Shown here: piece by piece, positions 1-64,000 of the stretch
Layout of the letters: each line of letters starts with the position of its first letter
How positions within the stretch are numbered: position 1 is the first letter of the stretch
DNA from: an uncultured Bacilli bacterium
GTDB taxonomy: Bacteria > Bacillota_I > Bacilli_A > RF39 > UBA660
DNA length: 64,000 bases
Reading direction: 5' to 3'
Assembly (NCBI GenBank): GCA_944372425.1
Contig: CALVZC010000001.1
Span: forward strand, 22,444 to 86,443
The notes under the pieces: model-generated
Told to the model about the DNA's origin: nothing
The model's database searches: none
What the model saw: only the letters and a program-made list of their open reading frames with translations
Position numbers and translations under genes: made by a program

Positions 1-344
1 ATTACCTGAATACTCATATTAGTAAGAAGTACATTCTTAATTATTAATGATAGATTTAATAAAACATAGATACTAATTCCTAAAGAACCTATTAATAATA
101 AGATTTTAATTATATTATTAAGTATTTTTATATTAGATAGATTTTTTAAATAATCATCACTGAAAAGTTTAACTATTATTTTCATAAAAATTAATCCTAA
201 AACAAAAGCAAGTAATATTGTTAAAATTACACTTATTGTATTAGTATTTTTAAAAAGTTGTATAGTTATTGTAGAAGTAAAACTATTTAAAAGAAAGAAA
301 ATTAAAATACCGATTTCTAATGATGTATATTTTTCTTTATTCAA
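1..344 (-). CDS. spore germination protein, GerAB/GerKB-type permease (N-terminal part, runs off window edge)
   Basis: Edge-truncated, so absent from the ORF track. The reverse frame is open for all 114 codons from a TTG at 344 that overlaps the stop of the upstream Ger(x)C gene. Translation LNKEKYTSLEIGILIFFLLNSFTSTITIQLFKNT... looks polytopic-membrane. It is the third gene of a gerA-type operon. Confidence 0.5.
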   Translation of the reverse strand, partial: MNKEKYTSLEIGILIFFLLNSFTSTITIQLFKNTNTISVILTILLAFVLGLIFMKIIVKLFSDDYLKNLSNIKILNNIIKILLLIGSLGISIYVLLNLSLIIKNVLLTNMSIQV

Positions 345-1266
345 AAATCTCACCACCTATATTTGGTTTATAATCAATATTAATATTAACGTTATATTTT
401 ATATTATTATTTCTTCCATATTTGTATAAAAGATATTCAAAGTAATTATTTTTATTATTTTGAGTAAAAGATGTTATAATTTTTGTTAGATAATTTTCAA
501 TATTATTTTTATCACTTTTATTATTTCCGTAGTATTTACAATAGAAATTAATTTCAATATTATCATTATGTACTTTATTGATAGTATAGCATTGTTCTAA
601 TTTATATACATTTTTATCTATTGTAATTTGAAAAGTTTTTATATTATTTTTTATTATATTTATAGCAAGTGATTCTTCATTAGTAAGTATTTTATTTTCA
701 TCATATATTGTTTTATAACCTTTTACATTAATTGTATTTTGTGTTTTAATAAATGGAACATAACTAATTTTATAATTTAGAATGTCTTTAATTATATCAG
801 TTAAAGTTATATCAGTTGTTATTCCATTTGTCGATAAAGATAGTGAAAGCATGTTTTTTATGTCAGTAGTATTTGTTTCGAGTATTTTATTGTCAATATG
901 TTCAACGATTATTGTAGTAAATGAACCACGTGAACTTTTTTCATTTAAAAAAAAGTTAAATATTTGATTGTAGTTATCTTTTACTAAATTATTGCTAAGG
1001 ATTAATAAATCCATATGGGTTAAATAAAGTCGTTTCATTAATTCGGTACTCAGATTATTAAAACATTCGTCTATTGTAGTACATGTTTTAATATAAATAT
1101 TTTCTTCATTTTCTTGATTGCTGGATAGTACTTTAACATATACATTATAATTATTTCCATTAACTGATATACCAATTGAAGATACTACTGCAATATTACT
1201 TATATCATTATAATTAGTACAACCAGTAAGAAAAATTATTAATATTATTAGATATATTTTTTTCAT
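337..1266 (-). CDS. spore germination lipoprotein, Ger(x)C family
   Basis: 309 aa. N-terminal lipobox MKKIYLIILIIFLTGC. Lies immediately downstream of a GerAA-type gene. Size fits the GerAC family. Confidence 0.7.
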   Translation of the reverse strand: MKKIYLIILIIFLTGCTNYNDISNIAVVSSIGISVNGNNYNVYVKVLSSNQENEENIYIKTCTTIDECFNNLSTELMKRLYLTHMDLLILSNNLVKDNYNQIFNFFLNEKSSRGSFTTIIVEHIDNKILETNTTDIKNMLSLSLSTNGITTDITLTDIIKDILNYKISYVPFIKTQNTINVKGYKTIYDENKILTNEESLAINIIKNNIKTFQITIDKNVYKLEQCYTINKVHNDNIEINFYCKYYGNNKSDKNNIENYLTKIITSFTQNNKNNYFEYLLYKYGRNNNIKYNVNINIDYKPNIGGEIFE

Positions 1267-1274
1267 ATAAACTC

Positions 1275-2684
1275 CTATCTGTTTCTATTTTTAGTTAAAA
1301 GTGGATTTCTTTTGTTTTGCCTACTTTTTACTTTTATAAAAGAATCTAAAATATCTGTTTTTATAAAAGGTACAAAAGGATAGGTATATGGAAAGCCAAA
1401 AGATGTAGTGCTAGCAATATTTATAACTAATATACCAAATCCAATAAATAATCCATATATTCCTAGTAGCATTCCAAGTATTAATATTAAATAACGATAA
1501 TATCTTATTAAGTTTACTATCGAGTTATAAGAAAAAACTAAAGCACTTATGGAACTTATAGCAACGACAATTATCATAATAGGAGAAATAATGCCTGCAC
1601 TAACTGCAGCATCTCCTAAAATTAGTCCTCCAAGAATAGATACTGAACTTCCGACTTTATTAGGAATTCTAATATCACTTTCTCTTAATATTTCAAAGGC
1701 AATTATCATTATTAAAATTTCAAAAAAAGCTGGAAATGGAACAATTGTATGTTGTTCTATTAAATTTAAAAGAAGATTAGTAGGAATAGCAGTTGGATTA
1801 AAAGATGTTACGCTTATATAATATCCTGGAAGAAATATTGCAATCAAAAATGCTAAAAAACGTAAAATTCTTGTAAATGTGGTATTAATATTTTTTTGAT
1901 AATAATCATCTGGCGTATGAAAAAAATCAATAAAGAATGTTGGAATAATTAGTACAGTAGGGGAGTTATCGACTATTATACAAACTTTTCCTTCTAGTAA
2001 TGCAAAAGAAGCTAAATCAGGACGTTCTGTTTGATTTACTTGCGGTAGAAAAGTAGATTTAGAAAGTTCTTCTGTTATATATCCACCATCGATAATAATA
2101 TCATTATTAATTTTTATTATTTTTTCCATTACTTTTTTAATTAGTGATTTTTCTGCAATACCATTTATATAACAAATCCCAATTTTAGTATGACTTTCAT
2201 TTCCTAAAGTAATTGATTTTACAAAAAGATTATTATTTCTTATTCTCTTTCTAATTAGTCCTAAATTTGTATTAAAGTTTTCAGTAAATGAATCTTTTGG
2301 TCCGGTTATAGAAACTTCTATGGAAGATGAATTTATTCCTCTATCTAAAGATGCTTTCGTTTCAATTGATAGTATATTTTTATTATTTATTATAATAATT
2401 GTATAACCAAGAAATATATTTTTAATAGCTTCATCTATTGATTTTAATTCGTTAATTGATGAACCAGTGAGCAAATTCTTTATTAAATTAATTATTGTAG
2501 TACTAGCAATATTTTTATTTTCTATTATTAATTCAGAGATAGGCTTTAATACATAGTTTGTTATAGCAGAAGAGCTGGATAAAGTTTCACTATATATACA
2601 ATCAATTACATTATTCTTTAAATTAATCGTTCTTATAATTATGTCTGTGCTATTACCACATCTATTTAAAATTTCTTCTTTCAT
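1275..2684 (-). CDS. spore germination protein, GerAA/GerKA family
   Basis: 469 aa. Soluble N-terminal half with a GerA-type motif ITGPKDSFTENFNTNLGLIRKRIRN, plus a C-terminal multi-TM block (FLAFLIAIFLPGYYISV..., IISPIMIIVVAISSISALVF). Confidence 0.85.
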   Translation of the reverse strand: MKEEILNRCGNSTDIIIRTINLKNNVIDCIYSETLSSSSAITNYVLKPISELIIENKNIASTTIINLIKNLLTGSSINELKSIDEAIKNIFLGYTIIIINNKNILSIETKASLDRGINSSSIEVSITGPKDSFTENFNTNLGLIRKRIRNNNLFVKSITLGNESHTKIGICYINGIAEKSLIKKVMEKIIKINNDIIIDGGYITEELSKSTFLPQVNQTERPDLASFALLEGKVCIIVDNSPTVLIIPTFFIDFFHTPDDYYQKNINTTFTRILRFLAFLIAIFLPGYYISVTSFNPTAIPTNLLLNLIEQHTIVPFPAFFEILIMIIAFEILRESDIRIPNKVGSSVSILGGLILGDAAVSAGIISPIMIIVVAISSISALVFSYNSIVNLIRYYRYLILILGMLLGIYGLFIGFGILVINIASTTSFGFPYTYPFVPFIKTDILDSFIKVKSRQNKRNPLLTKNRNR

Positions 2685-9616: not shown

Positions 9617-10820
9617 GAAAATTAATTTTAAAACTTATTTATTAAAAGCTGGAATTGTATCTTTTGTGTTATTAACAATTTTTATTTTTATTTGTAATTA
9701 TGAGTATCGAGTCTATACAAATAATTTTAATAACAAAATAGATCAAATAGTAACAAAAATTTTAGAAAAATATCCCAATGTTACTGAAAATGAAATTATA
9801 TTAATTTTAAATAATGATGAAAGTAATTCAGAATTATTTGAAAAATATGGAATAGATTTAGATACACAATCAATTTTAATTGAAAATGATAATTATTATA
9901 ATTGCTTTATATTATTGAAAGTTATATTTTTTGTAGTAATAATTTTCTTTTTTCTTTTTTTCTTTTTTATGTATAATAGAAGAAAAAATAAAAGTATTGA
10001 AAGTATTACTAAATATCTTGAACAAATTAATAGAAAAAATTATGATTTAAATATTGATTCTAATTCAGAAGGACAATTATCAATATTAAAAAATGAAATA
10101 TATAAAACTACTGTAATGTTAAAAGAAGTAGCAAATAATTCTAAAATTGATAAATTGAATTTAAAAAAATCTTTAGAAGATATATCACATCAGTTAAAAA
10201 CCCCTTTAACAAGTATTCTTATAATGTTAGACGATTTAATAGATGATGAAAACATGGATGTAGAATTACGAAATGACTTTTTAAAAAATATTAAAAGAGA
10301 AATAATGAATATTAATTTTTTAGTCCAAGAAATATTAAAATTGTCTAAATTTGAATCTAATACTATTAAATTTATAAAAAAAGATACAAAAGTAATAGAA
10401 ATAATTAAATCTTCTATGGATAATGTATTACTTTTATGTGATTTAAAAAATATAGAAATTATTGTAGAAAATAGTAATAGTTCTAAAATAAAATGTGATT
10501 ATAAGTGGGAAGTGGAAGCAATTACTAATATTTTAAAAAATTGCATTGAGTATTCTGAAAATGGACAAAAAATAATTATAACTTGTCAAGAAAATAATAT
10601 ATATTTTATGATTAAAATAAAAAGTTTTGGTAAAATTATAGATAAGAAAGATTTACCTCATATATTTGAACGTTTTTATCAAGGAAAAAATTCTAATTCT
10701 GATGGTATTGGAATAGGTCTTGCATTATCTAAAGCTATTATTAATGAAGATAATGGTACTATAGATGTTTTTTCTAATAAAAAAGAAACAACTTTTATAA
10801 TTAAATATTATCGAATATAA
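9609..10820 (+). CDS. sensor histidine kinase
   Basis: Overlaps the regulator stop by 8 nt. Two TM segments, H-box ISHQLKTPLTSI, N box ILKNCIEYS, G box DGIGIGLALSKAII. Confidence 0.85.
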   Translation: MNKKINFKTYLLKAGIVSFVLLTIFIFICNYEYRVYTNNFNNKIDQIVTKILEKYPNVTENEIILILNNDESNSELFEKYGIDLDTQSILIENDNYYNCFILLKVIFFVVIIFFFLFFFFMYNRRKNKSIESITKYLEQINRKNYDLNIDSNSEGQLSILKNEIYKTTVMLKEVANNSKIDKLNLKKSLEDISHQLKTPLTSILIMLDDLIDDENMDVELRNDFLKNIKREIMNINFLVQEILKLSKFESNTIKFIKKDTKVIEIIKSSMDNVLLLCDLKNIEIIVENSNSSKIKCDYKWEVEAITNILKNCIEYSENGQKIIITCQENNIYFMIKIKSFGKIIDKKDLPHIFERFYQGKNSNSDGIGIGLALSKAIINEDNGTIDVFSNKKETTFIIKYYRI

Positions 10821-10889
10821 TTTGTTTTATAGTTTAATTTTTTTACTATTAATGTTACAATTATAATAAATAATAGGTGATAAAAGAAA

Positions 10890-11144
10890 ATGAATTGGAA
10901 ATTAAAACTATTTTATGTGATAGATATATTTATAATGATATTAAGTTTAATTATTTTATTGTTATTGAATAATTCTAAAGCATATGGATTATCTGCATTA
11001 ACTAATGCTGGGTATTTTGCTTTAGTTTTATTAATTCTTTTATTAAGTATTATTGTTTGTTTTATTGTGACAGTAGTTAATATTTGTTTAAAAATTAAGG
11101 TTTCAAAAAATAAAAAAAACATAATAGTAAATAATATGTTATAA
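10890..11144 (+). CDS. small hypothetical membrane protein
   Basis: 84 aa with two hydrophobic segments. RBS-like aggtga upstream. No family recognised. Confidence 0.4.
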   Translation: MNWKLKLFYVIDIFIMILSLIILLLLNNSKAYGLSALTNAGYFALVLLILLLSIIVCFIVTVVNICLKIKVSKNKKNIIVNNML

Positions 11145-11174
11145 TAATTTTATTGTATAAATAGAGGTGTTTTA

Positions 11175-11768
11175 GTGAGAGTAATTGAAAAAGATCCTTT
11201 GTTCTATAAAATAGTAAGGCCAGTTATTAGCTTATTATTTAAGATATTGTATCGACCTATTATAATTGGGAAAGAAAACATTCCTAATAAAGGACGTATC
11301 GTAATTGCAGGTAATCATACAAATAATTTTGATTGTGTATTGCTAATTTGTTCTACTAATCGTTGTATTCATTTTTTAGCTAAAGATGAACTTTATCGAG
11401 GAATTAAAAAAATATTATTTAAACATATGGGAATAATACCAGTCAATAGAAGAACAAAAGATAACTTCGCTCTTGCTAAAGCAAAATCATTTTTAAATAA
11501 AGAGATGGCTATTGGTATTTTTCCAGAAGGAACTTTTAATAGAAGTGATAAAGTTATTTTACCTTTTAAAATTGGAGCAGTAAAAATGGCACATGATACT
11601 AATTCAAAGATTGTTCCATTTACTATTACTGGAAAATATAAATTATTTAAAAAAAGAGTTAAGATTACATTTTATAAACCAATAACTATAAAAGGTGATA
11701 ATTTAGACGAAGCAAATGAAGACTTAATGAAGTTTATTAGTAAAAAATTAACTAGTAGTGAGGTATAA
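11175..11768 (+). CDS. 1-acyl-sn-glycerol-3-phosphate acyltransferase family (PlsC-like) protein
   Basis: GTG start after gaggtg. HX4D motif GNHTNNFD, FPEGT motif, PFKIGAVKMA. Confidence 0.8.
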   Translation: MRVIEKDPLFYKIVRPVISLLFKILYRPIIIGKENIPNKGRIVIAGNHTNNFDCVLLICSTNRCIHFLAKDELYRGIKKILFKHMGIIPVNRRTKDNFALAKAKSFLNKEMAIGIFPEGTFNRSDKVILPFKIGAVKMAHDTNSKIVPFTITGKYKLFKKRVKITFYKPITIKGDNLDEANEDLMKFISKKLTSSEV

Positions 11769-11769
11769 T

Positions 11770-13497
11770 ATGAGTTTTTTAAATATTTTTGGAATTAAGA
11801 CAAAACCCAAAGCACCATGGAGTAAATATTATAAAAATAATGAAATGAAACTAAAGGTTCCAGAAGGATCACTTTATGATTTTATTAAGCAAAATTTACC
11901 AGAATGTAATAATGTAGTTGCATATAACTATTATGGACATTTAGTGACTTATAAAGAGTTTTTTAAACAAATAGATTTAGCTTCTCGTTCTTTTCGTAGT
12001 CAAGGAATAAGAAAAGGTGATGTAGTTACTATTTGTATGCCTAATACACCAGAAGGTATTATTAGCTTTTATGCTTTAAATAAAATTGGGGCTATTGCTA
12101 ATATGATTCATCCGTTATCTAGTGAACAAGAAATTAAAAATTATTTAATTTCTACTAATAGTGTTATGCTTGTTATGATTGATTTGTGTTATGAAAAAGT
12201 AGCTGAAATAATTAAAGAAACCGATGTTTATAAAACAATAATTGTATCTGCTGGTAATTCGATGTCAATGTTACTTAAACTAGGGTATATATTCACTAAA
12301 AGTTATAAGATAAAAAAGCCTTATTTTAAAGGCGAATACATGTATTGGAATGATTTCTTGCGTAAAGGTAGTAGTTATAATGGAAGGTGTAGTTTTGAAA
12401 CTGATAAAGATACACCTGCTGTGATTTTGCATAGTGGTGGGACAACCGGTACTCCTAAAGGAATTTTGTTATCTAATGGTAATTTTAATACATTAGCAGA
12501 ACAAGCAAAAATTGTTTTAAAAAATTTAGAAAAAGGTGATACGATATTAACAATAATGCCTATTTTTCATGGTTTTGGTATTGGCGTTTCAGTTCATACA
12601 CCTTTACATATAGGATGTACTATAAATTTAATTCCACAGTTTGATGCTAGACATTTTGATAAGTTATTAGCAAAAACAAATCCACAAGTTGTAGTAGGAG
12701 TTCCTACCCTTTATGAAGCACTTTTAAATACTAATAATAAGAAATTAGATTTAAAAAAATTGAAATATGCAATATGTGGTGGTGATACTCTTACAGTTAG
12801 TTTAGCAAGAAGAGTTAATGTTTTTTTGGAAGAACATAATTCAAAAGTAAAAATTATGCAAGGCTATGGAATGACCGAAAGTACAGCTGCAACTGCTCTA
12901 GCTTGTGATGATTATAATGTTGAAGGAAGCATTGGAATTCCATTTCCAGGTGATTATTTTAAAATAGTAAAGCCTAATACTCAAGAAGAAGCGCCTTATA
13001 TGGAAACAGGAGAAATTTGTGTTTGCGGTCCAACAGTTATGATGGGATACTTAGATAATGAAAAAGAAACTAATGAGGTTTTACAAATTCATGATGATGG
13101 TAATGTTTGGCTACATACTGGTGATATGGGATATATGAATAAGGATGGTATAATTTTTTATCAAAGTAGGTTAAAAAGAATGATTATATCTTCTGGATAC
13201 AACATATATCCACAACAGATAGAAACAGTTATTGAAGAACATGAAGCAGTATTAAAATGTACAGTAATTGGAATACCACATCCATATAAAGTTCAAGTTG
13301 CTAAAGCAATAATAGTTTTAAAAAACGGTTATAGTGATTCTTGGATAACTAGAAAGAGTATAAAAGAACATTGTGAAAAAAATTTATCAAAATTTTCTTT
13401 ACCTTATGAATATGAATATCGAAAATCACTTCCTAGAACTTTAATAGGAAAAGTTGATTTAAAGAAATTAAGTGAAGAATCATCTAATGGTGAATAA
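11770..13497 (+). CDS. AMP-dependent acyl-CoA/acyl-ACP ligase (long-chain fatty acid ligase family)
   Basis: AMP-binding motif LHSGGTTGTPKG, then GYGMTE, then TGDMGY ... RLKRMI. I prefer the ATG at 11770 (RBS gtgagg) over the track start at 11758. Confidence 0.85.
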   Translation: MSFLNIFGIKTKPKAPWSKYYKNNEMKLKVPEGSLYDFIKQNLPECNNVVAYNYYGHLVTYKEFFKQIDLASRSFRSQGIRKGDVVTICMPNTPEGIISFYALNKIGAIANMIHPLSSEQEIKNYLISTNSVMLVMIDLCYEKVAEIIKETDVYKTIIVSAGNSMSMLLKLGYIFTKSYKIKKPYFKGEYMYWNDFLRKGSSYNGRCSFETDKDTPAVILHSGGTTGTPKGILLSNGNFNTLAEQAKIVLKNLEKGDTILTIMPIFHGFGIGVSVHTPLHIGCTINLIPQFDARHFDKLLAKTNPQVVVGVPTLYEALLNTNNKKLDLKKLKYAICGGDTLTVSLARRVNVFLEEHNSKVKIMQGYGMTESTAATALACDDYNVEGSIGIPFPGDYFKIVKPNTQEEAPYMETGEICVCGPTVMMGYLDNEKETNEVLQIHDDGNVWLHTGDMGYMNKDGIIFYQSRLKRMIISSGYNIYPQQIETVIEEHEAVLKCTVIGIPHPYKVQVAKAIIVLKNGYSDSWITRKSIKEHCEKNLSKFSLPYEYEYRKSLPRTLIGKVDLKKLSEESSNGE

Positions 13498-14288: not shown

Positions 14289-15800
14289 ATGATAAAACCA
14301 AAAATAATGTTTTTAATAACAATAACAATTTTAGGATTATCGATAGGATATGGAGCTTTTAATGCAGAATTATCAATAAGTGGAGAAGCTTCAGTTAATC
14401 CACCAAAAGAATATAAAGAAGCAATATTAAATGGAACAGAACCAAAATTAGAAGAACCATTAATACCAGTAACAATAGAAGATGATGGAACAGTAAAGAA
14501 AGCAGATTTAACAAGTAAGTGGTATAGTTATGAAGAAAAAAGATGGGCAAATGCAGTAATATTAAAAAATGAAAATAAAGAATATGTTAGTGGAGAAATA
14601 ATACCAGAAGAAGAAATAGAGAGTTATTTTGTATGGATACCGAAGTATAGTTATAAGTTATGGGATTTAGGAAATTATAGTAGTAGTAATACAGGAATAG
14701 ATGCAAGTAAAGTACATTCAATAGATATAAAATTCGGAACAATAAATACTACTGATAGTATAGAAGGAGAATGTACAACACCTGGATTATCAGGAGAAAG
14801 TAGAAACTGTGAAGTAGGAGATTATATGACTCATCCAGCTTTCTTAGCATTCAATACAAATGGACTATGGGTAGGAAAGTTTGAGACAGGATATGATGGA
14901 GCAACAAGTATATCTGGAGCTCAAAAAAATACAACAGAAGTAGATAAAGTAATAATAAAACCAAACGTTTATAGTTGGAGGAATATACAAGTAGCCAATG
15001 CTTTCACAGTAAGTTATAATTACAAACGTGAATTAGAATCACATATGATGAAGAATACAGAATGGGGAGCAGTAGCTTATTTATCACATTCTATATATGG
15101 AATAAATAGTGAAGTAAGATTGAATAATAATTCTAGTCGTAAAACGGGATATTCAGCAGTATCAGAACCAACATTAGACTATCCAGAATATAAGGGTTAT
15201 GGAACAAGTAGTAGTGTAACTCAAGCCTATAATACAACGACAGGATATTTAGCAAGCACAACAGGAAATATAACGGGAGTATATGATATGTCAGGAGGAA
15301 GTCATGAATATGTAATGGGAGTCCAAGTAGATGAGAGTGGACTACCATTATCAGGAAGACATAATATCTATAATTCAGGGTTTAATGGAATATTAGGATG
15401 TCCGACATGTGATATAGGAACAGTAAGTGGAGTAGATAGCAGTATAACTAGTATAACAAATGGGATAAATTTACCTAGCAATAAATATTATGATAGTTAT
15501 AAAGTAAATAGTAATTGGAATAGAGCAAATAGGATATTAGGTGATGGAACAGGAGAGATGGGACCATTTGGAACTATTCAGACAACAGGAACAACAGAAC
15601 AATGTGGAGAAACTGGAATATGTAATAGACCAATAGGTTCATGGTATGGTGATACCTCTTCGTTTGTTTACTCTAGCGGCCCTTGGTTCAACCGTGGGGG
15701 CTACTATGGCGACGGTTCTGGAGCTGGTGCGTTCTATTTCGCCAGCTACGACGGGTATGCTACCGGCAACCTTTCTTTCCGTTTGATTTTGTGTATATGA
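14289..15800 (+). CDS. secreted or membrane-anchored protein with an FGE-sulfatase / C-type-lectin-like C-terminal domain
   Basis: 503 aa. N-terminal hydrophobic anchor MIKPKIMFLITITILGLSIGYGAF. Motifs WVGKFETG, GVYDMSGGSHEYV (compare the GxYDMxGNVWEW motif of FGE-like domains), and a C-terminal FNRGGYYGDGSGAGAFYF...SFRL. Confidence 0.8.
   Translation: MIKPKIMFLITITILGLSIGYGAFNAELSISGEASVNPPKEYKEAILNGTEPKLEEPLIPVTIEDDGTVKKADLTSKWYSYEEKRWANAVILKNENKEYVSGEIIPEEEIESYFVWIPKYSYKLWDLGNYSSSNTGIDASKVHSIDIKFGTINTTDSIEGECTTPGLSGESRNCEVGDYMTHPAFLAFNTNGLWVGKFETGYDGATSISGAQKNTTEVDKVIIKPNVYSWRNIQVANAFTVSYNYKRELESHMMKNTEWGAVAYLSHSIYGINSEVRLNNNSSRKTGYSAVSEPTLDYPEYKGYGTSSSVTQAYNTTTGYLASTTGNITGVYDMSGGSHEYVMGVQVDESGLPLSGRHNIYNSGFNGILGCPTCDIGTVSGVDSSITSITNGINLPSNKYYDSYKVNSNWNRANRILGDGTGEMGPFGTIQTTGTTEQCGETGICNRPIGSWYGDTSSFVYSSGPWFNRGGYYGDGSGAGAFYFASYDGYATGNLSFRLILCI
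15636..15797 (+). other. DGR variable-region-like segment (A-depleted, GC-rich, NNC-codon-rich 3' tail)
   Basis: Hand counts: 15661-15720 has 34/60 G+C and 7/60 A; 15721-15780 has 33/60 G+C and 9/60 A. 20 of the 45 codons from 15651 to 15785 end in C, against 0 of the first 45 codons of the same gene. No matching template repeat or RT is in the window. Confidence 0.45.
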
Positions 15801-15838
15801 CTTTGTTATTGAAATTATTTTAAATTAATATATATAAA

Positions 15839-15863
15839 AAGAATTGTTGTTTCAACAATTCTT
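15839..15863. terminator. bidirectional intrinsic terminator between convergent genes
   Basis: Hairpin aagaattgttg-tttc-aacaattctt, flanked by an A-run on the left and T-rich sequence on the right. Confidence 0.7.
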
Positions 15864-16812
15864 AATTATTATTTTGGTTATTGTTTTCATTGTTTTTGAT
15901 ATTAGGATTAGCTATTGGGCCGTTAGATGTAGGTATAGATTTATCTACGAAAGTAGTTTTTAATTTTGTTTTATCATCTATTTGTCCAACATTGCTATTT
16001 GCGCCTAATTGATTATTTATGTTCATTAAACCGGTTTTTTCTGAAATACTTCTATCAGGTATTATTTCTTTTGGTTTAGTTAAGTATATTGTATCAATTT
16101 GATTTTGGGTTATTGATTCAGCTTGTTTTTTTAGTTCGTCGTAATCTAAATTTTCAGCTTCTATTGTGTCAGTTTCAAATGCGTAATTTGTAATATAAGT
16201 TAATATTATGGAAAAGATTTCAACATAAAGTGAAATAGTTACAACTTTATAAGCTGCTTCTGATGTTTCCTTTAGTGATGAGAAATTAAATCCCTTATAT
16301 CCATATACGTTTGGAAGCGTTTCAATCATTTCAGCTTTAATTATTACCCATAACTGGACGATTATACTGGCAATTATAGCTATGTATGCAATTTTTTTAA
16401 TAAAATCACATATAGTATTGTTTGGTTTTACGACACATAAAAGAGAATAAGCTAAAAGGTATAGCTGTATTTGTGAAATAAAGTTATATATGTTTACTAT
16501 AATACTATACAAAGATTCATTTATATCTTTTAATGGTAAGAATAAGACTACTGCTGATAAAATTATTGAGAATAACATAAAAAAAAGTATTATTCTTACA
16601 AGATAGTTTTCATCTTTTCTTTGAAGACAAAAACTAGAAATTGCCATAATTATTATCGGAATTATATTCATTGTAAATAGTTCTGATAATTTAGAAGCAA
16701 AATCGGGAATATCATTTACTGGAAAAATAGAACTCGTGATAATTAAGGCAATTAGACATCCAACTAATAAAATAGAAAATAATTTCATTAAATTTTTCAT
16801 AGATATAATCAT
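15862..16812 (-). CDS. hypothetical polytopic membrane protein with an N/Q-rich C-terminal tail
   Basis: 316 aa. About 6 TM segments, then a soluble tail ending NIKNNENNNQNNN. The start is ambiguous (16812 or 16800). Confidence 0.6.
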   Translation of the reverse strand: MIISMKNLMKLFSILLVGCLIALIITSSIFPVNDIPDFASKLSELFTMNIIPIIIMAISSFCLQRKDENYLVRIILFFMLFSIILSAVVLFLPLKDINESLYSIIVNIYNFISQIQLYLLAYSLLCVVKPNNTICDFIKKIAYIAIIASIIVQLWVIIKAEMIETLPNVYGYKGFNFSSLKETSEAAYKVVTISLYVEIFSIILTYITNYAFETDTIEAENLDYDELKKQAESITQNQIDTIYLTKPKEIIPDRSISEKTGLMNINNQLGANSNVGQIDDKTKLKTTFVDKSIPTSNGPIANPNIKNNENNNQNNN

Positions 16813-16892
16813 TCCTCTCTACTATTATTACTATATAAATTTAACATATAATTAAAAGTTTTACAATATAGAAATGGTTGTGATATAATTAA

Positions 16893-18026
<1,134 letters not shown>

Positions 18027-25287: not shown

Positions 25288-25364
25288 GGACCCTTAGCTC
25301 AGTTGGTTAGAGCATCCGGCTCATAACCGGGCGGTCATAGGTTCGAGTCCTATAGGGTCCACCA
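25288..25364 (+). tRNA. tRNA with CAT anticodon (Met or lysidine-modified Ile2; the acceptor and D arms look Ile-like)
   Basis: The cloverleaf folds by hand: acceptor ggaccct/agggtcc, D arm gctc..gagc, anticodon stem tccgg/ccggg with loop ctCATaa, T arm atagg-ttcgagt-cctat, and an encoded CCA. Confidence 0.9.
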
Positions 25365-25370
25365 TTATGT

Positions 25371-25455
25371 GCGGGTGTGGCGGAATTGGCAGACGCACTA
25401 GACTTAGGATCTAGCGCCGTAAGGTTTGCAGGTTCAACTCCTGTCACCCGCACCA
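25371..25455 (+). tRNA. tRNA-Leu (anticodon TAG), class II with long variable arm
   Basis: Acceptor gcgggtg/cacccgc, anticodon stem ctaga/tctag with loop ctTAGga, long variable arm, T arm gcagg-ttcaact-cctgt, and an encoded CCA. Confidence 0.9.
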
Positions 25456-31426: not shown

Positions 31427-33973
31427 ATGAAGCGTAGTGAAGTAGATAAAAGTAAAATTAGTCCTATGATGTTGAAGTATCTTGAAATAAAAGAAAAATA
31501 TAATGATACAATAATTTTTTATAGATTAGGCGATTTTTACGAAATGTTTTTTGAAGATGCAATTTTATGTTCTAGAGAATTAGAACTTACATTAACTGGA
31601 AGAAATGCTGGTTTAGATGAAAGAGTACCAATGTGTGGGATTCCTCATCATGCTTATTTATCTTATTTGGAAAAATTAATTGATAAGGGATATAAAGTAG
31701 CTATTTGTGAACAGCTAACTGATCCTAAGGAAACTAAGGGAATGGTTGAAAGAGATGTAATTCAAGTTGTAACTAAAGGTACAATAATCGATAATACGTT
31801 AAGTGAAAAAGATAACAATTACATTGGTAATATTTATGACTTCGATTATTGTTATGGAATAAGCTATACGGATATTACTACTGGTGATTTTTATGTATTG
31901 ATCATTGAACATGATAAAAATAAGTTAATAAAAGAAATTTGTAATAGAAATATAAAAGAGATTATAGCCAATGATAAAATTGATCGTGAAATAATAACTA
32001 TTTTTAAAGATAGTTATCATATTTTAGTTACTATTTCAGAATCTTTATATACTGGAGATAAATATAAATATATTACAAAAGAAATACAAGATATTAGAAT
32101 GGTTACGACAATTAATCATTTGTTATATTATATTTTAGATACAAAAAAGGGTGATATGTCTCATTTGCAAAAAGCCGAAATAATAAATTTAGATAAATTT
32201 TTATTATTTGATAGTCATACTAAAAGAAATTTAGAATTGACAGAAACTTTAAGACAAAAAGAGAGAACCTATTCATTATTATGGTTAATGGACAAAACAA
32301 AAACTGCTATGGGAAGTAGATTTTTAAAGTATAATATCGAAAATCCACTTACTAATGTAAGTGAAATTAATAGAAGATACGATACTGTAGAAACATTGCT
32401 TACTGAGTTTATTTTAAAAAGTGATTTACAAAATGCTTTAGATCAAGTATATGATTTAGAAAGATTAGCAAGTAGAATTAGTTATGGAAATTTGAATGCT
32501 AGAGATTTATTACAATTGAAAAAATCGTTGAAGGTATTGCCAACAATAAAGAAAATTTTAGAAGAAATAAAATTTTATAAATCAATAAATACATTTGATG
32601 ACTTGTGTGAATTATTAGAAATTTCTATATGTGAGGATCCTCCTTTTTCTATTAAAGAAGGTGGAATAATAAAAAATGGATATAATAATGAATTAGATGA
32701 ACTTCGAAGTATAAGAAGTGGTTCTAAAGATTTTATATTAAAAATAGAGCAAGAGGAAAGAGAAAAGACTGGAATAAAAAATTTAAAGTTAGGATATAAT
32801 AAAGTTTTTGGATACTATATTGAAGTTAGCAAGAGTAATATTCCTCTTATAAAAGAAGAATTTAATTATGAAAGAAAGCAAACTTTGGCAAATTGTGAAA
32901 GATTTATTACACCACTTTTAAAAGAAAAAGAAAATATAATTTTGGGTGCTGAAGAAAAAATAATAAATCTTGAATATAAAATATTTATGGATATAAGAGA
33001 AAAAGTTAAAGAATATATTAGTGATATTCAAAATACTTCAAAAGTTATTGCTTTGATTGATATGCTGGTTTCATTTGCTACTATTAGTGAAGAAAATAAT
33101 TATATAAGGCCAATAATTTCAAAAGAAAAGAAAATTGATATAAAAGAAGCTAGGCATCCTGTCGTTGAAAAAGTAATTAAAGATGGATTTGTACCTAATG
33201 ATATAATTATGAATAGTGGGGTAGATATTTTGCTTATAACAGGTCCTAATATGGCTGGAAAGTCTACTTATATGAGAACTTTAGCAATAATTATCATAAT
33301 GGCACAAATAGGAGCATTTGTTCCAGCTAAAAGTTGTACAATTTCTATTTTTGACAAAATATTTACTAGAATAGGTGCAAGTGATGATTTAGTAAGTGGA
33401 GATTCTACATTTATGGTAGAAATGAAGGAAGCTAACAATGCAATTAGTGAAGCAACTCCTAATAGTTTAATTTTATTTGATGAACTTGGTAGAGGTACAG
33501 CAACATATGATGGAATGAGTTTGGCTCAATCAATATTAGAATATATTCATAATAAAATAAAAGCAAAGACACTTTTTTCGACACATTATCATGAATTAAC
33601 TTCATTATCTGCCGATTTAAAAAGATTAAGAAATGTTCATGTTAGTGCAATAGAAGAAGAAGGAAAAATTACATTTCTTCATAAAGTAAAAATGGGAGCT
33701 ATTGATAAAAGTTATGGGATTCATGTAGCATCTTTGGCTCAGTTACCAAAAGAAGTAATAGATAGAGCAAATGAAATATTAGATATGTATGAAAAAAAGA
33801 ATAAAAAAGAAAGACCATATAAGCAAATAGAACTTTTTACAGAAATAGAGGAAACTAATGATAATAAAAACTCTGTTATCGAAAAGATAAGTAAAATAAA
33901 TCCACTTGAAATTACTCCAATACAAGCGATTAATATTCTCTATGAGCTAAAGCAGGATATTAATAAAAATTGA
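31427..33973 (+). CDS. mutS: DNA mismatch repair protein MutS
   Basis: 848 aa. SPMMLKYLEIKEKY, FYRLGDFYEMF, Walker A GPNMAGKSTYMR, LFDELGRGT, FSTHYHEL. Confidence 0.95.
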   Translation: MKRSEVDKSKISPMMLKYLEIKEKYNDTIIFYRLGDFYEMFFEDAILCSRELELTLTGRNAGLDERVPMCGIPHHAYLSYLEKLIDKGYKVAICEQLTDPKETKGMVERDVIQVVTKGTIIDNTLSEKDNNYIGNIYDFDYCYGISYTDITTGDFYVLIIEHDKNKLIKEICNRNIKEIIANDKIDREIITIFKDSYHILVTISESLYTGDKYKYITKEIQDIRMVTTINHLLYYILDTKKGDMSHLQKAEIINLDKFLLFDSHTKRNLELTETLRQKERTYSLLWLMDKTKTAMGSRFLKYNIENPLTNVSEINRRYDTVETLLTEFILKSDLQNALDQVYDLERLASRISYGNLNARDLLQLKKSLKVLPTIKKILEEIKFYKSINTFDDLCELLEISICEDPPFSIKEGGIIKNGYNNELDELRSIRSGSKDFILKIEQEEREKTGIKNLKLGYNKVFGYYIEVSKSNIPLIKEEFNYERKQTLANCERFITPLLKEKENIILGAEEKIINLEYKIFMDIREKVKEYISDIQNTSKVIALIDMLVSFATISEENNYIRPIISKEKKIDIKEARHPVVEKVIKDGFVPNDIIMNSGVDILLITGPNMAGKSTYMRTLAIIIIMAQIGAFVPAKSCTISIFDKIFTRIGASDDLVSGDSTFMVEMKEANNAISEATPNSLILFDELGRGTATYDGMSLAQSILEYIHNKIKAKTLFSTHYHELTSLSADLKRLRNVHVSAIEEEGKITFLHKVKMGAIDKSYGIHVASLAQLPKEVIDRANEILDMYEKKNKKERPYKQIELFTEIEETNDNKNSVIEKISKINPLEITPIQAINILYELKQDINKN

Positions 33974-63719: not shown

Positions 63720-64000
63720 TTATTTATTTTCAATATTATTCTTAATAAACTCTAATAAATTAACAACTCTATCGTATTCCATACGTTTTGGACCAATAAT
63801 AGCAATCGTACCTTCTTCTTTATCAGTTTTATATTTTGTTTTTATCATTGTCATATCATCATCAATATTACTTTCTTTACCAATATAAATTTTAATATTA
63901 TTATCATCATCATTTTCTACAATATTTTCAATATTACTATCATCTAATTTATCCATTATATTTCTTACTTTTTCAACATTGCTAAACTCTGGAAGTTTTA
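63720..64000 (-). CDS. hrcA: heat-inducible repressor HrcA (C-terminal part; the gene continues beyond the window)
   Basis: GTIAIIGPKRMEYDRVVNLLEFI is a typical HrcA C-terminus. The reverse frame stays open to the window edge. Position upstream of grpE-dnaK. Confidence 0.8.
   Translation of the reverse strand, partial: KLPEFSNVEKVRNIMDKLDDSNIENIVENDDDNNIKIYIGKESNIDDDMTMIKTKYKTDKEEGTIAIIGPKRMEYDRVVNLLEFIKNNIENK

Follow-up and report, generated by a model that had tools for sequence, protein, structure and literature searches.

The target gene and its G+C-rich tail

The window, i.e., the whole 64-kb stretch of DNA that was analysed, has an overall G+C content of 24.3% and carries, among housekeeping genes, an intact ORF on the plus strand (14289-15800) that encodes a protein of 503 aa. 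The 3' end of this gene has a base composition of its own, with approximately 52–55% G+C: positions 15661-15720 contain 34 G+C and 7 A in 60 nt, and positions 15721-15780 contain 33 and 9, respectively. Codons ending in C (NNC) make up 20 of the 45 codons across 15651-15785 and 15 of the 454 codons of the gene body (Fisher p = 2e-14), and none is present in the initial 45 codons of the ORF. The tail counts, as well as the lack of C-ending codons at the gene start, had been obtained by hand in an earlier note on this DNA, and a recount reproduced them exactly. Only 0.1% of the 150-nt windows in the 64 kb are as rich in G+C as the tail patch. The sole other stretch above 45% G+C is a tRNA-Met/tRNA-Leu pair (25288-25455); therefore, no protein-coding patch of the 64 kb other than the tail is rich in G+C. 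The G+C-rich segment 25241-25496, considered as a candidate template repeat (TR), was discarded because it consists of these two tRNA genes. The features relevant to the interpretation, in which the gene is very probably the target of a diversity-generating retroelement (DGR), are the following:

14289..15800, plus strand: probable DGR target gene, 503 aa, comprising, from the N-terminus, a hydrophobic leader, a conserved body and the variable region
14289..14390, plus strand: N-terminal hydrophobic leader MIKPKIMFLITITILGLSIGYGAFNAELSISGEA, read from the translation
15036..15320, plus strand: weakly FGE-sulfatase / C-type-lectin-like region (HMMKNTEWGAVAYL ... TGNITGVYDMSGGSHEYV), from a family-profile search
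15656..15782, plus strand: core of the probable variable region (VR), 127 nt, homologous to the TR and apparently rewritten at TR adenines
15669, 15678-79, 15702, 15708-09, 15711, 15741-42, 15745, 15747, 15750, 15763, 15765 and 15771, plus strand: substituted TR-adenine positions, by comparison with the TR of the related locus L127
15756 and 15782, plus strand: non-adenine differences to the L127 TR, from the VR-TR alignment
15783..15797, plus strand: TR homology continuing to the stop codon, at the IMH position, with non-adenine mismatches to the TR
15839..15863, strand not assigned: hairpin with an 11-bp stem and a 3-nt loop (AAGAATTGTTG TTT CAACAATTCTT), from DNA folding

A complete DGR cassette in related Bacilli

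Closely related uncultured Bacilli possess a full cassette in which a target gene ending in a VR is followed by a spacer, the TR, a MutS-like gene, an Avd gene and a reverse transcriptase (RT) gene. In locus L114 the target occupies 10001-11851 and the TR starts at 12060, followed by the MutS_I-like gene, bAvd and a gene with the RVT_1 domain; the spacer between VR and TR is approximately 210 nt long, and the TR has 141 nt. The L114 VR differs from its own TR at 13 of 141 positions, and all 13 are TR adenines. The same cassette, 99.2% identical to that of L114, is present in the closed 1.31 Mb MAG OZ006981.1, and it is also found in L127-L134. The marks of the cassette are the sequence TTCTATTTCAACAACAACAACGGG and the RT motif IGNYTSQ...YMDD, the latter carried, together with a match to RVT_1, by the RT that adjoins the TR in L114, L116 and L127-L134. 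The bAvd protein of these cassettes matches PF22296 (E = 1.4e-17) and, under the curated cutoff of that model, NF033474 (E = 4.5e-19), and the MutS_I-like (MSL) gene matches PF01624 (E = 4.9e-9); MSL proteins are a described class of DGR accessory protein (PMC5758913). The TR core is invariant across seven loci but for two polymorphic sites, and in the L127 TR, 12 of 42 codons are AAC and 30 of the 31 adenines lie at codon positions 1–2. In one related cassette the RT is split (42 + 293 aa). A second RT subfamily, in L076, has its VR and TR 347 nt apart and mismatches exclusively at adenines (14/14); the VR of this locus reaches 57% G+C in surroundings of 26% G+C.

Comparison of the window tail with these templates revealed 17 mismatches to the L127 TR over 127 nt, 15 of which affect adenines of the TR (9 A>G, 3 A>T and 3 A>C), while the other two are C>T changes. 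The near-identical L114 TR, on which the statistic was computed, gave over 125 nt 15 changed adenines out of 31 and 2 changed positions out of the 94 other bases (Fisher p = 3e-9). A CTCTTCG variant in the L127 TR abolishes one of the non-adenine mismatches seen with L114, and the window VR agrees with the L127 variant at this polymorphic site.

From the letters alone, the earlier note had proposed that this tail is a DGR variable region, for which one would expect elsewhere a near-copy differing almost only at adenines, with an RT of DGR type and a small accessory gene next to it. This is what the relatives carry: the 141-nt TR, from which the tail departs almost only at TR adenines, is adjoined by bAvd, the MutS-like gene and an RT with DGR signatures. 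The template match, the cassettes and the strain alleles described below all support the proposal. The boundary of the patch had to be moved, as it was placed at 15636 and the TR homology begins some 20 nt later, at 15656, and extends in its core to 15782; the stop codon follows 15 nt beyond.

Searches around the window and beyond

The window itself yielded no RT, Avd or template, as the earlier note had stated. An ungapped scan for a template-like copy in which A was treated as a wildcard gave at best 29 matches in 50 positions, a repeat finder detected no second copy of the tail region within the 64 kb, and a six-frame search of the window gave no RT motifs. When the window was queried by tblastn with three DGR RTs and accessory proteins, the only match fell in the housekeeping MutS, at its C-terminal tail; this MSL match (33824-33967) was considered as a cassette remnant and rejected, given that it lies within mutS (31427-33973). 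On contigs from other strains the locus could be followed further, by approximately 10 kb on its left side and 2.7 kb on its right, and no RT, TR, Avd or MSL was detected in these flanks.

Exact-protein look-ups returned no copy of the target protein or of the acyltransferase encoded upstream of it, and did not match the exact Tgt, GrpE and YidD proteins of the window in the closed cassette-bearing genomes; judged from these sequences, the window organism may belong to a lineage other than that of the closed genomes. A scan of the GTDB species representatives with the TR pattern gave OZ006981.1 as its sole match. A first guess of the TR deduced from two VRs (CCTTGGTTCAACCGTGGGRACAACWAT) had no match in genome contigs; the actual TR has GGC AAC TAT at that point. 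In addition, sample ERZ24773263 contains both the RT cassette and the locus of the window species, a co-occurrence judged too weak to serve as evidence.

Among viral contigs, two VR-scaffold patterns gave chance matches only, in unrelated G+C-rich or phage sequences, and the true TR pattern gave no match; the nearest RTs in IMG/VR are at most 44% identical to the cassette RT. A phage origin of the cassette was rejected because of these last two results.

The target protein and its family

The N-terminal leader of the window protein is read from its sequence as a putative secretion signal or membrane anchor. Paralogues such as P0073 have at this position a type IV prepilin leader (GFTLIELL) together with an extra domain, and P0073 matches TIGR02532 and PF07963 (E = 2e-8 for the latter). 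The prepilin N_methyl leader is common among the paralogues (11 of 74 aligned members); the window protein, which starts with MIKPKIMFLITITILGLSIGYGAFNAE, lacks the G|FxxxE motif and gave no match in the family search, having neither a Pfam nor an NCBIfam match anywhere along its length. The window copy is therefore not classified as a pilin.

More than 7,900 homologues were found, chiefly from uncultured gut Bacilli. These share a constant C-terminal scaffold, SSWY.D...FV.S..PWF.RGG.Y..GSGAGAF.F....G.A....SFRLVL, in which the variable positions are interspersed, and a paralogue with 66% identity has the same invariant nucleotides, synonymous sites included. When the family profile was compared with the PDB, the sole match was 5vf4_A, with an E value of 1.4 that is below significance; the alignment covers residues 250–344 and spans the ...TEW.AVA... 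and ...DM.G...E.V... motifs. In this structure TaqVP, the variable protein of a DGR, adopts the FGE-type CLec fold (PMC6328139). Of the 74 family members, 14 match the PF03781 model below its threshold (best E = 4.4e-4), and this model also matches related targets weakly, at profile positions ~128–199. AlphaFold2 produced poor models of both the full protein and residues 201–503, with a mean pLDDT of approximately 49 in each case. These similarities hint weakly at an FGE/CLec fold for the target protein.

Strain alleles at the tgt-adjacent locus

The same locus, adjacent to tgt, was compared in other strains. Downstream of the VR, strains show 0–5 differences over 1,100 nt; upstream, the neighbouring gene varies, being the acyltransferase in the window and Bax1-I in L117. 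The VR allele designated B, present in L119, L122, L125 and L140, differs from the window VR at 23 positions, 22 of which are TR adenines, and the body of the L119 gene is 9% divergent from that of the window gene. Given that the VR differences fall at adenine sites despite this divergence of the bodies, the window allele and allele B both appear to have been rewritten from one template since their divergence. These 22 sites correspond to positions 1–2 of AAC codons, in accordance with the polymorphism that the earlier note had expected among strains; the opposite outcome, a G+C-rich block unchanged in orthologues, was looked for and not seen, as the alleles differ.

Not all the VRs of this family are so close to the template. 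Allele D has 27 non-adenine mismatches, 16 of which are C>T, and its G+C content is 37%; a paralogue adjacent to hrcA has 42 such mismatches and 36% G+C. These two VRs seem to have decayed, and the window VR shows only 1–2 non-adenine changes, which suggests that homing at the window VR was recent. On the other hand, the window VR allele is found identical in L120 and L123, and the L120 gene body differs at 10 positions, so there is no sign of very rapid ongoing turnover; every VR allele found was present unchanged in several samples.

In L121 the tgt locus is arranged as a gene ending in VR1, a full spacer and VR2. Over the 90 alignment columns that run from the spacer into VR2, this sequence is identical to L127 and has 8 differences to both L114 and L131; in this strain, the tgt locus is thus linked on one DNA molecule to the spacer variant that the best-matching cassette carries. 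The nearest homologue of the window gene by identity (85%, in L115) is not syntenic with it.

The 3' end of the variable region

Beyond the core, positions 15783-15797 read TTGATTTTGTGTATA in the window and TTGGTCTTGTGCATA in the L127 TR, the differences being G>A, C>T and C>T, so that the IMH-like end carries 3–4 non-adenine mismatches to the TR. The G>A change is private to the window lineage, and the other strains have otherwise the same flank at this locus. A canonical hairpin, TTTTTCC-N6-GGAAAAA, begins 2 nt past the stop codon in L114 and L115, and a weaker version is present in L001. DNA folding did not reveal this hairpin after the VR of the window target, where the structure at 15839-15863 is a different one; located where the target gene and ORF 15862-16812 converge, it is read as a predicted bidirectional terminator. 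A conserved downstream element of approximately 140 nt, shared by the cognate target and by the remote targets of L115 and L001, is also absent at the window target.

Origin of the variable region

The evidence is best accounted for if 15656-15782 is the VR of a non-adjacent, remote DGR target whose RT and TR lie outside the window, an interpretation that we hold with high confidence. That the tail has nothing to do with a DGR, and represents a horizontally acquired or selectively maintained block such as a family handle or a codon-usage island, is very improbable. The conservation of its invariant nucleotides across paralogues and species would fit such a block; it would leave unexplained why the mismatches to an RT-linked template are adenine-specific, why strains vary at TR-adenine sites (22/23), why relatives carry complete cassettes and why the block is not kept unchanged in orthologues.

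More serious is the idea that the VR was written by a DGR recently and then orphaned, its cassette having been lost or inactivated and the VR frozen as a fossil. The lack of a cassette in the window and in the flanks known from other strains, the missing canonical hairpin and the recovery of one VR allele from three samples would all agree with it, as would two changes that are private to the window lineage and directed towards A+T (15756, C>T; 15786, G>A); furthermore, decayed VRs are known at this very locus (allele D) and in the neighbouring paralogue, and a related cassette has a split RT (42 + 293 aa). Nevertheless, only 1–2 of 96 non-adenine positions are changed in the window VR versus 27 in allele D, with allele bodies that are 9–16% divergent, so that any loss of the cassette would have to be very recent. 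The link of the tgt locus to an L127-type spacer in L121, and the agreement of the L127 TR variant with the window VR, also speak against such a loss, and we consider the orphan state unlikely. The window organism probably still carries an active cassette, and the VR would accordingly be remote rather than orphan.

It is somewhat less likely still that the VR was diversified elsewhere, at a cassette-adjacent target or another paralogue and possibly in another strain, and then entered the locus through homologous recombination or replacement of the gene. In favour of this idea, the locus is a hotspot of recombination in which bodies that are 1%, 9% and 16% divergent sit on near-identical downstream DNA, the upstream neighbour depends on the strain, a cassette-derived segment (gene, VR1 and spacer) is fused to the locus in L121, and the closest homologue is non-syntenic; the absence of the canonical hairpin points in the same direction. 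Yet alleles A, B and C retain the locus-specific 3' end (CGT TTG GTT TTG TGT ATA TGA) with different adenine-site patterns, so the exchanged tracts would need to have ended again and again within the final ~20 nt of the VR. The non-adenine positions are homogenised to the TR in spite of the diverged bodies, and even then a DGR would be needed as the source of the variation. Homing directly at the window locus is therefore the reading that we favour.

Proposed mechanism

According to the remote-target interpretation, a cassette elsewhere in the genome would contain a target with its VR, a spacer of ~210 nt, the 141-nt TR, the MutS-like gene, bAvd and the RT. The TR would be transcribed from this cassette, and the RT would produce a cDNA with misincorporations opposite the template adenines, which would replace the homologous 3' end of target genes. 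As a result of this replacement, the non-adenine positions would be reset to the template sequence, and the 31 adenine positions, mostly in the 12 AAC codons, would be randomised, which may alter ~19 residues in the putative ligand-binding tail of a protein that is secreted or located at the surface. The scaffold codons of the template would avoid A and the variable codons would be AAC, and this is presumably why the tail is A-poor, rich in NNC codons and close to 50% G+C; once homing ceases, it would drift towards A+T.

A broader and rather speculative proposal is that the DGR acts in trans on scattered, secreted and often pilin-led adhesin-like paralogues of gut Bacilli, including targets that lack the hairpin, and that the 140-nt homology between TR and VR also drives recombination that moves or replaces whole target genes, as the L121 junction would illustrate. 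If true, the retroelement would yield both point diversification and shuffling of paralogues, and it would represent a Gram-positive counterpart of the DGR-diversified pili of Bacteroides, with relaxed target recognition.

Relation to known systems and significance

Remote targets have precedents, as the DGR of Treponema denticola has seven non-adjacent ones. In the archetypal DGR of the Bordetella phage BPP-1 (Mtd, TR, Avd and bRT) the target is phage-encoded and adjoins the cassette, and a GC-rich IMH with a downstream hairpin/cruciform is needed for efficient homing. The system described here shares with BPP-1 the adenine-specific mutagenesis, the AAC codons, the Avd protein, a VR formed by the last ~130 nt of the target and a TR/VR homology that does not stop at the final variable site but reaches an IMH-like end. 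It differs in that the window target, located amid housekeeping genes, is at least 14 kb (left) and at least 48 kb (right) from any RT, and in that no hairpin lies directly past its VR.

A closer resemblance is found with the chromosomal DGRs that have remote targets and an MSL gene plus avd, named 'Architecture D' by Wu et al. 2018 and exemplified by the Legionella DGR (PMC5758913). Common to both are a cellular, non-phage cassette with a MutS-domain-I gene and Avd upstream of the RT, an AAC-rich TR, several target paralogues, some of them distant from the RT, and a VR at the extreme C-terminus. In contrast, the host here is an uncultured gut Bacilli bacterium with ~24–26% G+C and a genome of ~1.3 Mb, the target family has no Pfam model and many of its members have a type IV prepilin leader, and the window target lacks the hairpin that is kept at other targets of the same TR.

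A preprint describes DGRs of Bacteroides by which the adhesins of type V pili are diversified (bioRxiv 10.1101/2024.11.15.621889). The two cases are alike in that gut bacteria vary pilus-associated or surface adhesins, the paralogues of the window protein having pilin-type leaders; they differ in phylum, in the leader, which here is of type IV / Com-like prepilin and not type V, and in that the present system is known from sequence alone, and the leader of the window copy itself is of a different, unclassified type. With regard to TaqVP (5VF4), the likeness consists of the weak family-profile alignment (E = 1.4, below significance), and the PF03781 matches, under the gathering threshold, map to the profile segment that this alignment covers.

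Large metagenome surveys miss remote targets because they require the VR to adjoin the RT (Roux et al. 2021, PMC8144416). The present case indicates that base composition is enough to recognise such a target when neither its RT nor its TR is at hand, given that the VR is conspicuous in a very A+T-rich genome as the sole coding patch rich in G+C; the drift of a VR towards A+T may also provide a rough gauge of the time since it was last rewritten. The freshly written VR alleles at a hairpin-less locus would constitute a natural test case for target recognition by DGRs. Systems of this kind are known; the present one is seen in an uncultured gut bacterium with very AT-rich DNA, and it brings to light a large family of targets (>7,900 matches, no Pfam model) whose members, from uncultured gut Bacilli, are surface or pilin-like proteins. 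The presence of several target paralogues per small genome, set among housekeeping genes, suggests that variation of surface ligands is important for these gut Bacilli.

Base composition of the target gene tail

The window has an overall G+C content of 24.3%, and the body of the target gene contains ~30% G+C and 40–50% A; from ~15640 onwards, the gene shifts to 52–54% G+C and 13–18% A. The earlier note had proposed that 15636–15800 is the variable region (VR) of a diversity-generating retroelement (DGR), lying without its reverse transcriptase (RT) or template repeat (TR). Its hand counts were reproduced exactly (34/60 G+C and 7/60 A in 15661–15720; 33/60 G+C and 9/60 A in 15721–15780), as were its codon counts, i.e., 20 of the 45 codons of 15651–15785 are NNC, and none of the first 45 codons of the gene ends in C. 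Codons ending in C represent 15/454 in the gene body versus 20/45 in the tail (p = 2e-14). When the whole window was scanned, only 0.1% of the 150-nt windows reached a G+C content as high as that of the tail, and the only other patch above 45% (25288–25455) corresponds to two tRNA genes. The surroundings are indeed of a housekeeping type, with acyltransferases, an AMP-binding enzyme, tgt, RNase III, and pheST preceded by a T-box leader; likewise, no template-like copy of the VR, no RT and no Avd gene was found within the 64 kb, as had been stated, nor was a MutS-like accessory (MSL) gene.

Features of the window
14289–15800, + strand: target gene, 503 aa
15656–15782, + strand: VR core
15839–15863: hairpin common to the target gene and the convergent ORF
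15862–16812, − strand: ORF of 316 aa, convergent to the target gene and without a Pfam or NCBIfam match; in all strain contigs extending this far, its counterpart is called with a length of 312 aa
21335–21527, + strand: T-box leader (Rfam RF00230, 115 bits) upstream of pheS/pheT

Cassettes carrying the RT and the template in relatives

The first complete cassettes came from metagenome loci of more distant homologues, 44–63% identical to the target protein. In one of these, L076, the VR shows the same G+C anomaly as the window tail, and it differs from the TR at 14 positions, 14/14 of them at TR adenines; the TR is followed by two small ORFs and then by an RT with the motifs GNYTSQ...RYMDD.

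VR and TR of the L076 cassette
11054–11203: VR, 57% G+C in a locus of 26% G+C
11401–11550: TR, 347 nt from the VR

The subfamily of the window itself was found in locus L114; its target, P0015, and the window protein share 74% identity. Here the order is target, VR, a spacer of ~210 nt, a 141-nt TR, a MutS_I-like gene, bAvd and RT; the TR and its own VR show 13 differences, 13/13 at TR adenines. The RT of this type carries the motifs IGNYTSQ and YMDD and falls, at 90% identity, into a cluster of 79 sequences, and the Avd and MutS-like genes are supported by Pfam and NCBIfam. A TR-specific pattern, searched among the GTDB genome set, matched one species representative, OZ006981.1, a circular MAG of 1.31 Mb named 'uncultured Bacilli bacterium' whose cassette is 99.2% identical to L114. 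In the further cassette loci L127–L134 the TR core is identical save for two polymorphic sites. IMG/VR yielded neither a TR copy nor a close relative of the RT (≤44% identity), and in the relatives the cassette is placed between recD2 and a two-component system; the L114-type cassette is therefore cellular rather than phage-borne.

The RT of locus L129 (2818–3846) was called as two ORFs of 42 and 293 aa, so the DGR may be inactivated, or the assembly may be in error. The extreme C-terminal tail (...INPLEITPIQAINILYELKQ) of the housekeeping MutS gene of the window (31427–33973, + strand), especially 33824–33967, resembles the C-terminus of the MSL protein; from this likeness, MSL looks like a fusion of MutS domain I with a C-terminal tail of the MutS type. 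In another RT subfamily the cassette adjoins spoIVA (L039, 905–3663; L102, 3–2361), with the target directly downstream of the RT in L039 and ~9 kb away in L102. The presence of spoIVA beside these cassettes, together with gerA-type germination genes in the window (337–2684), suggests that the small-genome Bacilli of this group are spore formers.

Comparison of the window tail with the template

Against the L114 TR, the window VR is changed at 15/31 adenines and at 2/94 other bases (Fisher p = 3e-9). The window VR and the TR of L127 have the variant CTCTTCG in common, and the 15 adenine mismatches between this TR and the 127-nt window core (15656–15782) comprise nine A>G, three A>T and three A>C; the non-adenine changes are two C>T, one at 15756 and the other at the boundary (15782). 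The homology runs on to 15797, with three more non-adenine differences at the position of the IMH-like end, i.e., the element at the 3' end of the VR. In the TR, 12/42 codons are AAC and 30/31 adenines occupy codon positions 1–2.

Strain variation at the tgt locus

Exact look-ups of the window Tgt and YidD proteins retrieved the same tgt-adjacent locus from ~15 samples. Over the 1,100 nt that follow the VR, these strains show 0–5 differences, and their VRs fall into four alleles.

VR alleles at the tgt locus, with mismatches to the L127 TR
Allele A (window, L120, L123): 15 at A, 2 at non-A
Allele B (L119, L122, L125, L140): 11 at A, 1 at non-A
Allele C (L121): 14 at A, 4 at non-A
Allele D (L117, L118, L126, L141, L143): 16 at A, 27 at non-A; decayed

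Between allele B and the window there are 23 differences, 22 of them at TR adenines; within allele A, 10 positions separate the gene body of L120 from that of the window. Although 9% apart in the gene body, alleles A and B disagree at 1/96 non-adenine VR positions, so both were overwritten by the same template after diverging. The adenine-specific mismatches to the RT-linked TR of relatives and the strain differences at TR adenines thus bear out the proposed VR: the tail was almost certainly written by a DGR. It is a real VR, and at least 14 kb to the left and at least 48 kb to the right of the target gene are free of RT and TR.

In allele D, 16 of the 27 non-A changes are C>T and the G+C content is 37%. 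A second target paralogue (460 aa, 68% identical) lies just past window position 64000, adjoining hrcA (L032, 172–1554; L033; L034); decay has gone further in its VR, where 42 non-adenine positions mismatch the TR and the G+C content is 36%, and its post-VR hairpin is reduced to a degenerate remnant. The decay and lower G+C of these two copies indicate that the G+C-rich state is a mark of recent homing, and on that measure the window copy is fresh. The contigs of three samples end within the hrcA-side gene.

Apparent recombination at the target gene

In L121 (ENA ERZ16268232 scaffold_4828), positions 1–1015 represent the same tgt locus as window 15656–16907, with 3 differences in 1,100 downstream nt.

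VR-like copies in L121
519–658: VR1, end of the target gene
659–865: complete VR-to-TR spacer
870–1011: VR2, a second VR-like copy joined to the window-type 3' flank

VR2 is mutated at adenine sites and so is not a TR. The 3' part of the spacer is identical to the L127 cassette, and over 90 alignment columns from the spacer into VR2, L121 is identical to L127 and shows 8 differences from L114 and L131; hence an L127-type cassette apparently recombined with the tgt locus in the lineage of the window. The tandem looks like the product of recombination between the TR region of a cassette and the remote VR. VR alleles may in part have come to this locus by recombination.

The target gene is also a synteny and assembly breakpoint: contigs of many samples (L117–L126, L135–L144) break inside or just upstream of it, and its upstream neighbour varies, being an acyltransferase in the window and Bax1-I/SpoIVB in L117 and L136. 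Downstream of pheT, a region that corresponds to the window beyond ~25 kb, strain-variable mobile genes occur (resolvase/recombinase, KilA-N and Mob_Pre in L135, L137, L139 and L140), and L144 has an IS1595-type transposase near the pheST / tRNA-Met-Leu region, which we regard as an integration hotspot next to tRNA genes.

Presence and activity of the cassette in the window lineage

The RT and TR probably still reside elsewhere in the genome of the window organism; that the window VR is a recent orphan seems unlikely, although several observations counsel caution about present activity. Two features present at the cognate target and at the remote targets L115 and L001, the TTTTTCC-N6-GGAAAAA hairpin and a conserved element downstream, are missing from the window target; its IMH-like end shows A+T-ward changes, and every VR allele at the tgt locus recurs unchanged in several samples. 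No cassette was found in the flanks beyond the window on contigs of other strains (~10 kb to the left, 2.7 kb to the right). The closed cassette-bearing genomes contain no Tgt, GrpE or YidD identical to those of the window, and therefore would represent a related but distinct lineage.

The target protein family

The target protein has >7,900 homologues, most of them in gut assemblies of uncultured 'Bacilli bacterium', and many carry a prepilin N_methyl leader. Their C-termini have a common scaffold, SSWY.D...FV.S..PWF.RGG.Y..GSGAGAF.F....G.A....SFRLVL, with variable residues interspersed, so that the family displays a DGR-type pattern of constant scaffold and variable residues between. The G+C-rich tail recurs in a paralogue with just 66% identity to the window protein (L001), located between rpoC and rpsL on a contig of ~1 Mb, and the scaffold nucleotides of this paralogue equal those of the window even at synonymous sites. 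The 90%-identity clusters are mixed, some varying mainly at the variable tail codons and others having a frozen tail. The target-protein clusters (P0205, P0206, P0197, P0121) include several members of 43–46 aa, two of them named 'hypothetical protein [Burkholderia cepacia]', which have no visible similarity to the cluster proteins and look like clustering artefacts.

The lectin fold assigned in the earlier note is plausible and unproven. Neither Pfam nor NCBIfam gives a match to the window protein; PF03781 (FGE-sulfatase) appears below threshold in 14/74 family members and also matches related targets, the matched stretch being in every case ...TGNITGIYDMSGG..EYV.... The sole match of the family profile in PDB was 5vf4_A (E = 1.4); the entry 5VF4 is the structure of TaqVP, a DGR variable protein that adopts an FGE-type CLec fold (PMC6328139). 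Two AlphaFold2 runs gave a mean pLDDT of ~49, too low to judge the fold.

Relation to described DGRs

Cassettes with MSL and avd, as well as remote targets, are described DGR classes (Wu et al. 2018, PMC5758913). The cassettes of the relatives have the same accessory genes and remote targets, and the present system falls within the described group of cellular DGRs with MSL and Avd and with multiple or remote targets. New elements are the lineage of the host, a target family that is unannotated and in part pilin-led, and a freshly written target that has no canonical hairpin. Remote DGR targets escape large surveys (PMC8144416), and it is for this reason that the detection of one purely by its composition matters.
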